Of a stretch of DNA of 64,000 nucleotides, positions 3,015 to 10,412 are shown piece by piece (position 1 is the stretch's first letter; the number at the start of each line of letters is the position of its first letter). The stretch is from an uncultured Thermoplasmatales archaeon. Its GTDB lineage: Archaea > Thermoplasmatota > E2 > UBA202 > DSCA01. The position numbers and the translations under genes were made by a program. The stretch lies in contig CAZESS010000004.1 of the NCBI GenBank assembly GCA_964514975.1, forward strand, positions 33,708 to 97,707, in the 5' to 3' direction. The notes beneath the pieces were generated by a model. The model was not told the origin of the DNA. It made no database searches and worked only from the letters and a program-made list of their open reading frames with translations.

Positions 3015-3118
3015 CCGGGGACGCCGATGACACCCCCGGATGGAGCCTCGGCAATGATGCACCAGCAGGAAAAGAAAAATGCCCTGAATACCGGGGCACC
3101 GGCATGAGCAGTCCCCGG
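3015..3118. repeat. Nested imperfect inverted repeat (long stem-loop) in an intergenic region
   Basis: ccggggac (3015-3022) pairs with gtccccgg (3111-3118); inner pairs gccg/cggc, ccccgg/ccgggg and ggca/tgcc. Confidence 0.5.
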
Positions 3119-3121
3119 ACG

Positions 3122-4105
3122 CTATCCCTCGAAGACGAGCTGCGGCGACCGGTCAAGGGTTACCCGGGGCATGCGCGCGCTGTAGCCGGCACGCGTCGAG
3201 CTGTCGTAGCTGTCCATGTCGGTCTCCTCCAGCATCTCGCGGCCGCGCTCCCTGGCCTTTTCAACGCTCATGTTTATCTTCATGACCTCGCCGGGGAGCG
3301 CCCGCTTCACCAGGAAGTTCCAGCCGGCGCCCGCGCCATAGGGCAGCCCCTCAAGCACCATCATGGTGTCTTCGACGGGATAGTTCCACATGCCGGTCGG
3401 GTCGTCCCCAAACTTGGCGAGGGGGACGCCCATCGCGACCTCGTATTCCGGGGTGAACGTGGGGTCGGTGGTGACCCATTCACCGTCGATGAGCACCTCC
3501 GCCGTGCCGTGCAGCATGAACGAGCCAAAGGCGTCATACCAGTGCTGGAGCACCCGGCTGGCGCCGATCATATTGTCATACATGGATTCAACGAGCGCAA
3601 GGCTGTACAGCCGATAGCGCGCCGACAGGCCGGCGGTGCGGCACAGGGCTGCAAAAAGCGACAGCTGGTGCAGGCAGGTTCCGCTGCCCCGCCGGAGCGT
3701 TTCAACGGCGCCGTCGAGCGGCACGAAGGAAAGCCTGATATTGTTTTTGACGAAGTCGAAGACCGCCTCAGCATATGCCCGGTCGGGAAGCTCAAATGCG
3801 CCGAGCCGGTGGGCCATGGCAACGATGTCGGGGGCATGGCTGTTGCAGAAATGTGTCGGGCGGAGATATCGCCTGTTTTCGTCATAATAGCGCATGTCGT
3901 CATGGTGCTCGGGTACACTATAGGGCGGGTCGGCCTGTATCGCCTCCCGGTCGATATGTTTGGCCGCCTTGTTAGCCCTGACGACGGCGACGGGATGCAA
4001 AAGGATGCCCTTCAAAAGCGCGGGGATGGTCCGTGCGACGTTTTTGAACATCCGCCAGGGCATGATGTAGTTTTTTTCCCTGACCTCTCTGAGCCTCTGT
4101 ATCAC
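3122..4105 (-). CDS. Transglutaminase-like (Cys-His-Asp) domain protein
   Basis: GSGTCLHQLSLFAALCRTAGLSARY (catalytic Cys) and HGTAEVLIDGEWVTTDPT (His, Asp). Start overlaps the upstream stop (ATGA). Confidence 0.85.
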   Translation of the reverse strand: MIQRLREVREKNYIMPWRMFKNVARTIPALLKGILLHPVAVVRANKAAKHIDREAIQADPPYSVPEHHDDMRYYDENRRYLRPTHFCNSHAPDIVAMAHRLGAFELPDRAYAEAVFDFVKNNIRLSFVPLDGAVETLRRGSGTCLHQLSLFAALCRTAGLSARYRLYSLALVESMYDNMIGASRVLQHWYDAFGSFMLHGTAEVLIDGEWVTTDPTFTPEYEVAMGVPLAKFGDDPTGMWNYPVEDTMMVLEGLPYGAGAGWNFLVKRALPGEVMKINMSVEKARERGREMLEETDMDSYDSSTRAGYSARMPRVTLDRSPQLVFEG

Positions 4106-5511
4106 TGGCTCACCTCGTCGAGGTCGCTGAGCAGCATCTTGCGCATCTCCTCCGCGCAGCCCCGTATTTCCTCGCCGGCCATCCGGCTGACCTCGGGCTC
4201 CAGCACCGGTCCCTCGCGGCCGCAGACGGGGCAGCGCTCAAGCAGCTTCACCCGGTCGCCGGTGAAAATGAAGCCGGGGTAGCTCATTGCCAGGCCGTCG
4301 AGGAACGCGAACTTGCCGTATTCGCCGTAGCCGAGCGGCTGATTGCTCTCGTCGAGCACCATCGGCTGGATGTAGTTGTGCGGAATGTGCAGATAATGGC
4401 CCTCGGGGCACTGCATCATGAAAGCGTTGCTTTCCACCATCGCATAGAGGTCGAGGCACTGCCGGTCGGGGATCCCCAGATATTTCTCCACCTTGTCCCT
4501 GAAATCCTCGACGGGCAATCGCTTGTCCTCGTGGACCTTCCATCCACCGCCGGTGATCACGGCACCGCGCTCGCCGAAGTCGAAGCGCATGCCCTCCTGC
4601 TCCATCCGGTTCATGACCAGGTCGAGGATAAATGGGGCGCCAAAAAAGCCGATGTGCCGGCCGGTGGGCTCGAGGCGTTCAAGCCAGCTGATGATGTCGC
4701 CGACCATTTTCTGGTTGCGGCGCTTGGAGGTGAGCCGGGCGACGCCGCTCATCAGTTTTTCCTTCAACCCCTGCGGTCGTCCCATCGAGATGCGGATGAG
4801 GTCGGTGGTGATCTCGCGGTCGATGGCGACCTCGACGTTTTTCACGACGGCATTGGGGAGCACAGCGGTGACCTTGCCCACCCAGAGGTTGGTTTTGTGG
4901 GGATGCGGAAACAGCAGGTAGGCATCGGAGTCATATTCCCACCAGTCGCTCAGCATTTCCAGGCAGCATCGGGCGATGGCATATTCTGCATTGTGATAGG
5001 TCCGCCGGTCGCGGGGGATGAACGTAAACCGGCCGGTTGTGCCGCTGGAATATGCGATCGTGACACCGGAGCGCTCGAAGCTTTCGATGACGTCGTCATA
5101 GGTCGGCTCCGCCGAGTCAATCGTCACCCTGGGTATCTCCCCAGTCATGACGTTGGCGACCCACATGGCGAACTCTTTGCCCTCCGGGTAGTCCTTGAAA
5201 AACCGGTGGGAGAGCAATGGAATCCGGTGGAAGTCATCGAATCCCTTGATGTCATCGGGCGAGACGTCGTGCTCGCGGCAGAAGTCATGATAAAACGTGT
5301 TGTTTTCATAGTGATGTCTGAAGGCATGCCGGATGGCATCGAGCCGGTACCGCTCGGCCTGCTCCGCAGAGGTGCCATACATGCTCTGGGGCTCATAGAG
5401 CGCCACCTCCCCGGGATGCTGCGGGCCCTGTTCCGGCAGATAGCTGGCCAGGCGCCTGTTGACTTCTTCAAGAAACGGGGAATCGGTGTCTTTCGTTGTT
5501 GCAAATGCCAT
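4102..5511 (-). CDS. luxE: LuxE-family acyl-protein synthetase
   Basis: AFRHHYENNTFY N-terminus, YSSGTTG phosphate-binding loop, TGGGWK, DLYAMVE, YPGFIFTGD, CPVCGREG and C-terminal RGCA (acyl-acceptor Cys motif of LuxE). Confidence 0.85.
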   Translation of the reverse strand: MAFATTKDTDSPFLEEVNRRLASYLPEQGPQHPGEVALYEPQSMYGTSAEQAERYRLDAIRHAFRHHYENNTFYHDFCREHDVSPDDIKGFDDFHRIPLLSHRFFKDYPEGKEFAMWVANVMTGEIPRVTIDSAEPTYDDVIESFERSGVTIAYSSGTTGRFTFIPRDRRTYHNAEYAIARCCLEMLSDWWEYDSDAYLLFPHPHKTNLWVGKVTAVLPNAVVKNVEVAIDREITTDLIRISMGRPQGLKEKLMSGVARLTSKRRNQKMVGDIISWLERLEPTGRHIGFFGAPFILDLVMNRMEQEGMRFDFGERGAVITGGGWKVHEDKRLPVEDFRDKVEKYLGIPDRQCLDLYAMVESNAFMMQCPEGHYLHIPHNYIQPMVLDESNQPLGYGEYGKFAFLDGLAMSYPGFIFTGDRVKLLERCPVCGREGPVLEPEVSRMAGEEIRGCAEEMRKMLLSDLDEVSQ

Positions 5512-5742
5512 GGTATCTCCTGATAGGTGACGAATGATTGAGCGGTTGTTAAATAACGTTTTCTCAACGGGAATTGAACCCGGTTAAAAAAAATTTTAAC
5601 TCCTGTTGCCGGCACGCCGCATCCGACAAAAACGGCCACAATACATGTATACACGCACGGGATACACACACGTTAGATACAAATATCACAGAGCATCACC
5701 CGATGGCACACCGGCGACATTCCCTGTTCCGCCAAAAACAAC

Positions 5743-8134: not shown

Positions 8135-8180
8135 CCACGGATACATTTTTAAGGTCATGCTTATTGTAGGATTTGAGGAA

Positions 8181-9053
8181 ATGGCCACGATATGTGATAT
8201 CTGCGGGGAGGAAAATCCGGATGATGCCAAACGATGCGAGGCATGCAGCGCTCCGCTTGACGGCCCGTCGATAGCCGACCGGGTCGCCTCGGCCAAGGTT
8301 CTGGTCGCTCTTTTCGTAGCGGTGCTTCTCGTCATCGCGGCTATCATCATCGCGCCCATGCTCTACAACGAAGACAACGGCGGCAGCAGTGGTCCCGACG
8401 GCGACAACGACGGCATGCCCGACGACTGGGAGGAAGCCAACGGGCTCGACCCGGATGACCCCGCGGACAGAAACGGGGACCCGGACGGCGACGGGCTGTA
8501 CAACTATGAGGAATACCAGCTCGGCACCGACCCGCAAAACCCCGATACCGACGGCGACGGCGTTGAAGACGGGCTTGATCTCATACCGCTGAAAGACGCA
8601 GGCATCCAGATATCCATCGACTCCGTCAGGATAAACGACCCTGTTGACGGAATTCTCGACCAGAACATCAACGACCCCGCCGAGGCATTTATCCGCGTCT
8701 ATGTTGATGGAGAGCTCATCGGCGAGCTTCCAAGCGGCGGCCCCGTCGAGCTTGAAATCGACGTGGACGTCCGGCTCAACTGGAGTATGCGCGTCAACGT
8801 GTCGGATGACCGTTCACATATCATTCGTTTCGAGTTATTTGACAAGGACGCCATCGGGGAGCAACAGATAGACATCAACAAAGACCCGGATGACAAACAG
8901 CTGCTGGTCGAATATCATCTCGGGAACGAAATCGGCCGCAGCTACCAGGGTTCATCCGATGGCTCCGACGACGGCAACGACACCTTCTGGCGCGACGAAA
9001 AAGACGCGAAGATAACCTACACCATCACCACCATCGACATGCGCGCTCCCTGA
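8181..9053 (+). CDS. Membrane-anchored protein: zinc ribbon, one TM helix, Ca-binding DxDxDG repeats and an acidic extracellular domain
   Basis: CDICG...CEAC, hydrophobic helix, DGDNDGMPDDWE / DPDGDGL / DTDGDGVED repeats; RBS GAGG before ATG 8181. Confidence 0.75.
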   Translation: MATICDICGEENPDDAKRCEACSAPLDGPSIADRVASAKVLVALFVAVLLVIAAIIIAPMLYNEDNGGSSGPDGDNDGMPDDWEEANGLDPDDPADRNGDPDGDGLYNYEEYQLGTDPQNPDTDGDGVEDGLDLIPLKDAGIQISIDSVRINDPVDGILDQNINDPAEAFIRVYVDGELIGELPSGGPVELEIDVDVRLNWSMRVNVSDDRSHIIRFELFDKDAIGEQQIDINKDPDDKQLLVEYHLGNEIGRSYQGSSDGSDDGNDTFWRDEKDAKITYTITTIDMRAP

Positions 9054-9098: not shown

Positions 9099-10412
9099 AT
9101 GTATGTCACCAACCGCGATGTGCTGCTCGACGTGGCGGAGCCATTCCGGTCGATGCGGCGGGACGCGCTCGACATGCTCGAGGCGGCGCTGGACAGCGTC
9201 GACCCGCAGCGAGCGACCGGTGAGGCGCTGTCGCTGGACAACGATCGGTTGACGGTGGGCGACGTCACCGTTGACCTGTCATCGGTAGAGCACATATACG
9301 TGGTCGGTTTTGGCAAGGCCAGCGTCGGGATGGCACGCGCCGTCGAACGACTGCTGCCGGTCGACGACGCCCTCGTTATCGCCACCGAGGCTGCAGACCT
9401 TGACAGTAACAGTATAGTGGTGCGGCAGGGTGACCATCCGCTGCCGAGCGAGCGGAACATCGATGCAACGGGGGAGCTGCTCGACATTGTCGACCGGGCG
9501 GAGAAAAACGACCTCGTTGTCGTGCTGGTCTCCGGCGGCGGCTCGGCGCTGCTCTGCCGGCCCGCCGTTTCGCTGGAGGCGATGCGCGACGCGACCCGTG
9601 AGCTCATGCATGCGGGCTGCACCATCCAGGAGCTCAACACGGTCCGGAAGCACCTGTCCATGGTGAAGGGGGGACGGCTGGCAGCCCGGTGCCCCGCCCG
9701 CATTATCTCCCTTGTCATTTCCGACGTCATCGGCGACCCGCTCGAGTACATTGCGAGCGGGCCGACGGCTCCCGATCCTTCTACATATTCCGATGCGCGG
9801 GATGTGCTCGAAAAATATGGGCTCTGGCGGGACGGCGAGGTCATGCGCCGCATAGAGCGGGGCTGCACGGGTGAGCTCGAGGAGACCCCGGACCGGCTGG
9901 ACAACGTCGACCATGTCATCGTGGCAAGCAACGAGCAAGCCTGCCGGCATGCATGCACCGTGGCCACAAAAACGGGGTACCATGCAGACGTGGCGAGCAC
10001 GTCGCTGTCGGGTGAGGCACGCCGGGCCGGCCGGGATGTCGCCCGGTATGCGCGGATGCTGCCCCGTGACCATGCCGTCGTGATATTCGGCGGTGAAACA
10101 ACGGTTACCGTGACCGGTGACGGCAGGGGAGGGAGAAACCAGGAACTCGTGCTTGCCACACTGCAGGAAATCGAGGGGGAGCACATGGTTGTCCTGTCGT
10201 GCGGCACAGACGGCGTCGACGGCCGCAGCCCAGCCGCGGGGGCAATCGCCGACGGCGCCTCGCTGCGACGGACGCGGCAGCGCGGCCTTGACCCGGCGGC
10301 GGCGCTCCGTGACAATGACTCCTACACGTTTTTTAAAGCTCTCGGAGACGCTATCGTGACCGGTCCGACCGGCACGAACGTGATGGACATCCAGATAGTG
10401 GTAAAAGGTTAG
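9099..10412 (+). CDS. Glycerate 2-kinase (MOFRL family)
   Basis: [68 protein letters not shown]. Confidence 0.92.

Follow-up and report, generated by a model that had tools for sequence, protein, structure and literature searches.

What does a LuxE-type enzyme do in an organism that has no LuxC to receive its acyl group? The question is raised by two adjacent genes of an uncultured Thermoplasmatales archaeon, which lie in a 64,000-nucleotide stretch of DNA (assembly GCA_964514975.1, contig CAZESS010000004.1, positions 33,708–97,707 of the forward strand; the window, in what follows). The host genome comprises 66 contigs that total 1.96 Mb, with a completeness of 98.91% and a contamination of 2.92%. 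The first gene encodes a LuxE-like acyl-activating enzyme (P0001) and the second a cysteine enzyme of the transglutaminase fold (P0002). The usual vehicles for acyl groups are coenzyme A and phosphopantetheinyl carrier proteins; in the lux system a cysteine on the enzyme's own tail serves as the acyl carrier, but only for reduction to an aldehyde. We are fairly confident that the two archaeal proteins work together and that the first of them acylates itself. That they form a whole relay, in which an acid is activated with ATP, held as a thioester on the tail cysteine, passed to a cysteine of the partner and transferred to an amine, free of coenzyme A and of a phosphopantetheine carrier, we would put at about even chances. 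The features on which the argument draws are these:

4102–5511, minus strand: LuxE-family acyl-activating enzyme (P0001), 469 amino acids, ATG start
5032–5049, minus strand: SSGTTG phosphate-binding loop of P0001, residues 155–160, re-read from the DNA; S156, G157, T158 and G160 do not vary among 55 sequences
4537–4539, minus strand: K325 in TGGGWK, the counterpart of LuxE Lys238; GGGWK aligns on 7xc6_E 234–238, and K325 is invariant in the 55
4222–4410, minus strand: C368, H375, C427 and C430, four residues invariant in the alignment of 55 sequences
4183–4185, minus strand: R443, the counterpart of LuxE Arg355, which in both proteins precedes the tail cysteine by nine residues; invariant in the 55
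4156–4158, minus strand: C452 in the [RK]GC tail motif, the counterpart of the acyl-accepting Cys364 of LuxE; RGC aligns with LuxE KGC
4102–4105, minus strand: GTGA overlap of the P0001 stop and the P0002 GTG start, re-read from the DNA
3122–4105, minus strand: transglutaminase-fold cysteine enzyme (P0002), 327 amino acids, GTG start
3845–3847, minus strand: C87 in a YLRPTxxC motif, present in 52 of 53 relatives and aligned to FLFPSRYC of 3isr
3464–3676, minus strand: catalytic triad of P0002, C144 (3674–3676), H199 (3509–3511) and D214 (3464–3466), re-read from the DNA
3497–3499, minus strand: E203 of P0002, invariant in the alignment of relatives

The two enzymes

P0001 matches the Pfam LuxE family (PF04443) with an E-value of 7.8e-24 (84.7 bits against a cut-off of 24.9), and a profile built from four paralogues finds Photobacterium LuxE (PDB 7xc6_E) at E 1.4e-33. 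The C-terminal part aligns directly, with residues 269–452 against LuxE 186–368, and the protein is about 95 residues longer than LuxE, mostly in the N-terminal half. Its AlphaFold2 model (predicted local distance difference test, pLDDT, 89.8) has PaaK1 (2y27) as the best fold match (E 3.9e-16, template modelling score 0.56–0.61), with 416 columns aligned by Foldseek to full-length PaaK1; ClxA (9s45) and AjiA1 (6wuq) are among the other fold neighbours. The alignment with LuxE suggests a LuxE-like build of the C-terminal part, with no subdomain of the ANL type, but the Foldseek alignment is with PaaK1 at full length. In an excerpt of the published work on Photobacterium LuxE (PMC9157457), the K238A mutant is described as dead and R355A as nearly so, and Cys364, in the flexible motif 358-TRxxKGCxLS-367, as carrying the acyl group to Cys296 of LuxC. 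The residues required for LuxE adenylation and self-acylation are all retained in P0001 (alignment to 7xc6_E; 55 relatives). C452 lies 17 residues from the C-terminus, and both it and G451 are invariant in the 55 relatives, whichever partner gene adjoins. Judged by this alignment, the tail cysteine of P0001 is probably loaded with an acid by the enzyme itself. Three of the other invariant positions (C368, C427 and C430) have no cysteine in the alignment with Photobacterium LuxE, and together with H375 they may form a structural metal (zinc) site.

The partner, P0002, matches Transglut_core (PF01841; E 5.8e-12, 46.3 bits against a cut-off of 23), and an NCBIfam scan of it gave no match. Its AlphaFold2 model has a pLDDT of 90.3, and among solved structures it is closest to 3isr (Foldseek E 3.3e-6; VIA Z 10.8), followed by TglA (Z 9.2) and the animal transglutaminases (Z 8.2–8.5); arylamine N-acetyltransferases score 7.3–7.8 over 168–183 residues and the amide synthase GdmF 6.7, where a Z of about 7–8 counts as middling by the tool's own note. 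Five residues (C144, R156, R163, E203 and W210) are invariant in 53 relatives of P0002. The triad is of the Cys-His-Asp (C-H-D) type in 41 of the 53 and of a C-E-H type in the other 12, with Glu at the His position and His at the Asp position, and with Cys, His and an acid still present. With C144 in 53 of 53 relatives and a confidently predicted fold, P0002 looks active. A profile search against 1.84 billion representatives returned 75 clusters at E ≤1e-30, 535 at 1e-10 and 4,908 at 0.001; the close family is small and distinct. Matches in the ESM Atlas are confined to Thermoplasmatota transglutaminase-core clusters, without names.

The preliminary description of this DNA had credited the LuxE-like protein with an SSGTTG loop and a C-terminal RGC cysteine, and its partner with an intact Cys-His-Asp triad and no signal peptide. 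The loop, C452, C144, H199 and D214 were all found again when the DNA was re-read, and P0002 has no hydrophobic N-terminus, the highest 19-residue Kyte-Doolittle mean, a crude measure, being 1.38 (0.94 in P0001). The same description had the genes as a unit with a 4-base ATGA overlap at 4102–4105. The pair and the position of the overlap stand, but the coding strand reads GTGA and the partner therefore starts with GTG, a start that is supported because the residues just after it (L5 and E7) are invariant in four paralogues.

Prediction of a complex between P0001 and P0002 gave an interaction prediction score from aligned errors (ipSAE) of 0.56 (0.55–0.57 between runs), while the highest of three controls scored 0.00; the tool rates this as weak support. 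At least 70% of the contacts are common to the runs, and the partner pLDDT is 79 or more. Of 157 solved complexes 116 passed the same mark, as did 2 of 215 mismatched pairs; scores of 0.60 or less include only 18 of those solved complexes together with both passing mismatches (own alignments were used, and the counts are rough).

The pairing and its LuxC-linked sister genes

Conservation of the pairing elsewhere had been set beforehand as a check on the system, and the pairing recurs in the same genome, across the phylum and among public loci. The host genome contains four LuxE-like genes (contigs C4, C18, C11 and C1), each followed directly by a transglutaminase-fold gene on the same strand, with identities of 35–58% between the LuxE-like copies and 27–39% between the partner copies. 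A fifth transglutaminase-fold gene (G000:C35:7430-8401, locus L099) is near a contig end and has no LuxE-like neighbour; its product, which has the C-H-D triad, shares 55% identity with the C1 copy. Upstream of it are genes for a secreted-looking protein of 212 amino acids, a geranylgeranyl-reductase-like flavoprotein and a tyrosine recombinase. Three other loci (L047, L050 and L051) each have one LuxE-like gene and two partner genes, and as these suggest, the lone partner may share the activator of the C1 copy.

The phylum was sampled with 301 Thermoplasmatota genomes, which are mutually related and in which contig ends limit the counts. LuxE-like matches (E ≤1e-20) are present in 68 of these genomes and partner matches (E ≤1e-15) in 54. 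From 136 LuxE-like rows we set aside 14 that match in the C-terminal half only (E 1.7e-28 to 3e-21) and come from other families of the phylum. In 94 of the 122 that remain there is a partner on the same strand within 100 bp downstream, with match-end distances of -4 to +80 bases, and a limit of 1,231 bp raises this to 98. The other 24 include ten divergent genes, which are described below with LuxC, and three in one genome (G042) with no partner above threshold; a partner fragment lies just upstream of two of these, at a contig edge, and 200 bases of contig follow the third. One further gene has its partner divergently upstream, and the remainder, judged by coordinates, are fragments or lie at contig starts. 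The order, strand and near-zero gap of the pair hold in five or more families of the phylum, and in genomes of 1.1–2.7 Mb this archaeal group maintains between one and four copies of it. By family, the pair is present in 9 of 9 genomes of f1, 11 of 11 of f2 and 27 of 35 of f3, but in none of the 10 of f5.

Among 80 public loci, the partner is adjacent in 54 and within 1.5 kb in three, seven are cut at the locus end, and 16 have no downstream partner. All three with the wider spacing have an inserted gene, which in the one that was scanned (L046) is on the opposite strand and encodes a protein of the NAD-dependent epimerase/dehydrogenase family. Four orthologous groups of the LuxE-like protein match four of the partner on FastTree trees, the deeper branching of which is not resolved, and from this match the pair seems to have been duplicated as a whole unit. 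Complete adjacent pairs are also present at six loci (L020, L055, L058, L061, L062 and L066) on contigs from assemblies labelled Coprothermobacterota, Acidobacteria, Clostridia or 'bacterium', and they nest within archaeal sequences on the tree. These could be instances of gene transfer or of mis-binning; the flanking open reading frames (ORFs) on these contigs have no close counterpart in the host genome, which does not decide the matter.

The host genome gives no matches to LuxC (PF05893), LuxD (PF02273) or luciferase (Bac_luciferase, PF00296). The absence of all three that had been claimed for the window thus extends to the 98.91%-complete genome as a whole. A luxC partner had been named beforehand as a second finding that would count against the proposal, and none was found there. 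Some relatives do have one. Six of the 16 public loci without a transglutaminase-fold partner (L072, L073, L075, L076, L077 and L084) have a gene of about 500 codons, all of one homology cluster, 0.4–1.5 kb downstream, and the two members that were scanned are LuxC (PF05893, E 7.4e-64 and 1.2e-59). The ten divergent partner-less genes of the phylum sample comprise eight with LuxC downstream, one with LuxC on another contig and one with none found. The LuxC-linked genes encode proteins 37–39% identical to P0001, and on a midpoint-rooted FastTree tree they are sister to the transglutaminase-paired genes of the C11 and C18 types, a join flagged as a meeting of long branches; genomes of one family (f3) hold both kinds. 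The partner had been described as standing here 'instead of LuxC', and the wording is apt, since within this LuxE-like clade there is a sister subfamily with a true LuxC some 0.4–0.6 kb downstream. P0002 is in the position that LuxC occupies in that subfamily, and this is the strongest argument for P0002 as the acceptor of the tail-bound acyl group.

The LuxC-linked genes have a setting of their own. One example is L073:263-5952, where the order is a FAD_binding_4/ferredoxin (4Fe-4S) protein of about 650 amino acids, SCP2, LuxE-like, SCP2 and LuxC, and a similar set is present in the other five of these public loci, in G232:C1:2681-5835 and in seven other f3 genomes. By its domain content, this SCP2/LuxE-like/LuxC operon of the Thermoplasmatota is a gene set of the fatty-acid-reductase type with lipid-carrier domains, for which an aldehyde, an alcohol or an ether-lipid-like molecule are candidate products. 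Nine further public loci, mostly from Bathyarchaeia, have neither the transglutaminase-fold partner nor LuxC, and in the two scanned (L029 and L032) the LuxE-like gene lies between 2-hydroxyacid dehydrogenase and radical SAM/SPASM genes. We note that the Bathyarchaeial proteins at L029:5944-7395, L033 and L059 are extended by some 25 residues at the C-terminus, where a further cysteine follows RGC. The tail cysteine itself is kept in all three contexts.

A possible acyl relay and its alternatives

The relay would have four steps. To judge from the kept P-loop, K325 and R443, the LuxE-like enzyme would adenylate a carboxylic acid with ATP, and by homology with LuxE Cys364 the acyl group would then be moved to C452 on the enzyme's own flexible C-terminal tail. 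The gene order, the exchange of LuxC and the weak complex score point to a third step, in which the tail would hand its thioester to C144 of the partner. Finally, an amine would resolve the acyl-cysteine of the partner to give an N-acyl amide, by analogy with AdmF, CtaJ and the arylamine N-acetyltransferases. Thermoplasmatota archaea are thought to be without fatty-acyl lipids. Our guess is that the acid is hydrophobic or a lipid, given the two SCP2 lipid-carrier genes that flank the LuxC-linked sister genes; for the acceptor, the candidates are a protein, a small molecule and the head group of a lipid. The presence of four diverged pairs in a single genome suggests as many specificities. Profile matches in the host genome (one weak PP-binding, seven AMP-binding and no SCP2) are undecisive between this relay and the alternatives.

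There are several points that weigh against the relay. The move of the acyl group from C452 to C144 and the amine or alcohol acceptor are inferred, and the complex prediction, a weak pass that comes without contacts, is silent on C452 reaching C144. P0001 scores only 94.5 bits against the NCBIfam LuxE equivalog (NF052244), for which the cut-off is 550. The 12 C-E-H partners form one clade on the FastTree tree (one change, support 99) and represent a single kept event, not repeated covariation. A third conserved gene was sought by all-against-all ORF clustering of 80 public loci and five of the host genome, and none was found; the recurrent minus-strand ORF clusters are shadow ORFs within the two genes. 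The neighbours are mostly housekeeping genes, and they differ between paralogue groups. A search for longer relatives of P0002 gave no LuxE-transglutaminase fusion, on evidence that the tool grades as weak, and the best 150 of the 4,908 profile matches include no full-length match in a long protein. The Bathyarchaeia keep the tail cysteine with neither partner adjacent, from which it appears that the tail can serve other acceptors. Finally, the modelled fold of P0002 is equally compatible with hydrolysis and with transfer: 3isr was deposited as a putative cysteine protease (bacterial transglutaminase-like), and many of the fold neighbours are hydrolases (PeiW/PeiP, LapG, PNGase and protein glutaminase).

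In the same genus, the ORF after a C1-type LuxE-like gene (L019:2642-6085; there is a similar one in G292:C64) is a continuous frame of 1,147 amino acids. It has a transglutaminase core in its first 227 or so residues, followed by a papain-family peptidase C1 domain and a lectin-like domain, and could be either a real fusion or an artefact of assembly or frame.

The alternative that survives best, although we consider it unlikely, is that the partner is a hydrolase. It could free an acid from an amide, peptide or ester for activation, in a LuxD-like role, or it could unload or proofread the acyl-cysteine tail, and the real acceptor would then be encoded elsewhere or be a small nucleophile that attacks the tail thioester. 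The protease annotation of 3isr and the isopeptidases, proteases and glutaminases among the fold neighbours agree with such a role, as do the Bathyarchaeial relatives, which keep the tail cysteine with no transglutaminase partner; an M28 peptidase gene follows the pair in this genus, and at L019 the transglutaminase domain appears fused to a papain-family peptidase. However, a thioesterase that did nothing but unload the tail would render the use of ATP futile, and the partner sits where the sister subfamily has LuxC, itself an acyl acceptor. The M28 neighbour is limited to four loci of the same genus, and no conserved downstream gene for another acceptor emerges from the clustered loci.

A less probable alternative, which we regard as doubtful, is that the LuxE-like enzyme is an amide or ester ligase acting directly from the acyl-adenylate, as the benzoxazole PaaK-like ligases and GH3 do. 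The partner would then be an amidase or a remodelling enzyme acting on the product, and the tail cysteine would be structural or regulatory. Among the fold neighbours of P0001 are ClxA and AjiA1, which we take to be PaaK-like ligases that couple acids without coenzyme A. There are also transporter genes downstream of the partner in subsets of the loci (a major facilitator superfamily protein in eight loci, a weakly Nramp-like membrane protein in seven, and an EamA transporter after the C11 pair of the host genome); these fit a small-molecule product and, for those groups, tip the balance towards a small molecule as product or substrate. Against direct ligation, all 55 of the sequences, from three gene contexts, keep both the tail cysteine motif and the Arg that precedes the cysteine by nine residues, which is hard to explain if the tail is non-catalytic, and the sister subfamily pairs with LuxC, the recipient of the acyl group from that very cysteine in the lux system. 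That the two genes are mere neighbours without a common function is scarcely credible: the complex prediction is weak, but the order, strand and short gap are kept in 94 of 122 loci and at least five families, and the four paralogous pairs have stayed together through their divergence (35–58% and 27–39% identity) while all other neighbours changed.

If the relay of activation, tail thioester and partner acyl-cysteine is true, it would be a general and modular route to amides, and a third way of handling activated acyl groups. It would also point to new acylated molecules in uncultured archaea, and provide a compact, two-protein and ATP-only amide-forming system for biocatalysis; both P0001 and P0002 seem to be soluble, small and, as predicted, confidently folded, and would be amenable to study in vitro. 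More tentatively, the Thermoplasmatota and a few other lineages may hold a set of carrier-free amide synthases, with a LuxE-type tail cysteine as the built-in carrier and the transglutaminase fold as the condensation catalyst. These would have at least four specificities per genome, the C-E-H clade included, and N-acylated metabolites, lipids or proteins as products.

Gene surroundings and comparison with known systems

The DNA around the pair contains three candidate elements that were recognised by sequence reading only:

5548–5557, minus strand: AT-rich TATA-like element, 37–46 nucleotides before the P0001 ATG
5517–5520, minus strand: GGAG upstream of the P0001 ATG
3070–3118, minus strand: terminator-like site after the pair, a CCGGGG/CCCCGG inverted repeat (3113–3118 and 3091–3096) and a T-run (3070–3079)

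With the first two upstream and the inverted repeat and T-run downstream, the gene pair looks like a bicistronic unit. Its surroundings in the window are archaeal housekeeping genes, with those for ribosomal proteins L1 and L10/P0 divergently upstream, and downstream an M28 peptidase gene (1691–2926), which has an AT-rich element of its own, and a class I tRNA synthetase gene. The closest public records to the locus are from metagenome-assembled Thermoplasmatota archaea. Elsewhere in the window there is a 298-codon ORF on the plus strand (8157–9053), encoding a zinc-ribbon and a bacterial TSP3 repeat, and it adjoins a DUF4147/MOFRL (glycerate-kinase-like) gene at 9099–10412.

Several neighbours were considered as further members of the unit and rejected. 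Genes for aminoacyl-tRNA synthetases, eRF1, RtcB, PFK and ribosomal proteins are each confined to one orthologous group, and the M28 peptidase is found at only four loci, all of the same genus, with the terminator-like site lying between it and the pair. Two of the paralogues have mevalonate-pathway neighbours (HMG-CoA reductase, thiolase and HMG-CoA synthase), but these are not in clusters common to at least five loci and are treated as coincidence. A defence system was likewise rejected: PADLOC gave no families for either protein at E ≤0.01, and the four copies lie among housekeeping genes. Two other features of the paralogous loci are worth recording. A response-regulator gene of the receiver-helix-turn-helix type lies 52–72 bases upstream of the C18-type pair in five loci (L096:193-1269, which is G000:C18, and L056, L067, L069 and L081), and its product may regulate that paralogue. 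Near the C11 and C1 pairs are genes predicted to encode very large surface proteins, 1,796 and 1,626 amino acids long (L097:90-5480 in G000:C11 and L098:13786-18666 in G000:C1), with beta-helix/NosD repeats and subtilase, PKD and carboxypeptidase-regulatory domains.

We found no description of a LuxE-transglutaminase pairing in the open-access literature and bioRxiv. The idea of a transglutaminase-like protein working with an ATP-dependent ligase is already known from the ATP-grasp/Alpha-E operons (PMC5666114, in excerpt). What this genome adds is the presence of four pairs and a lone fifth partner in a small genome, a C-E-H clade of single origin, a count of LuxC-linked sister genes, and a complex score that is controlled, though weak.

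The ATP-grasp/Alpha-E operons offer one comparison. There, genes for an ATP-grasp ligase and Alpha-E accompany those for transglutaminase-like proteins of the 3isr type (Iyer et al. 2009, as cited in the excerpted text of PMC5666114), and the likeness is the coupling of a transglutaminase-like protein to an ATP-dependent, carboxylate-activating ligase. The 3isr-type bacterial proteins also provide the nearest solved relative of P0002 and have the LRPxxxC motif in common with it. The activator described here differs in being of the adenylate-forming LuxE/PaaK type, and no ATP-grasp, Alpha-E or Anbu genes are present among the neighbours scanned (the window, three other loci of this genome and representative public loci). 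The PaaK-type phenylacetate-CoA ligases in turn provide the best fold match of P0001 and share an N-terminal motif with it. However, P0001 scores far under the NCBIfam PaaK equivalog cut-offs, and has a LuxE-type cysteine tail at its C-terminus.

Two other comparisons concern the partner. The arylamine N-acetyltransferases and GdmF have a related fold and the same route, from thioester to acyl-cysteine to amine, but their donors are acyl-CoA or polyketide thioesters, and the Pfam scan of P0002 gave only PF01841 and no N-acetyltransferase match. In the excerpted text of PMC7898593, CtaJ (closthioamide) and AdmF (andrimid) are described as homologues of transglutaminases in which a Cys-His-Asp triad converts carrier-bound thioesters to amides. 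The proposed likeness is that a triad enzyme of the transglutaminase fold joins a protein-bound acyl group, as a thioester or thioamide, to an amine. The donor in those cases is a phosphopantetheinyl carrier protein encoded in a bacterial antibiotic cluster, whereas here it would be the activating enzyme's own cysteine, in a bare two-gene archaeal unit with housekeeping surroundings.

The closest comparison for the pair as a whole is with the LuxE-LuxC fatty acid reductase (7XC6; PMC9157457, in excerpt). Both have a first enzyme of PF04443 with the catalytic Lys and Arg and the [KR]GC tail cysteine, and in both, for the archaeal pair as proposed here, a mobile tail would hand its thioester to a cysteine of a partner whose gene adjoins; within the same archaeal phylum, LuxC is still present in a sister subfamily. 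There are differences in each component. P0001 has its additional length of about 95 residues, four extra invariant Cys/His residues and a score of 94.5 against the 550 bits of the LuxE equivalog, and the partner has a Cys-His-Asp transglutaminase fold rather than that of an NADPH-dependent reductase of the aldehyde-dehydrogenase type. With neither LuxD nor luciferase, the expected outcome in the archaeal pair would be acyl transfer, and not reduction to an aldehyde.

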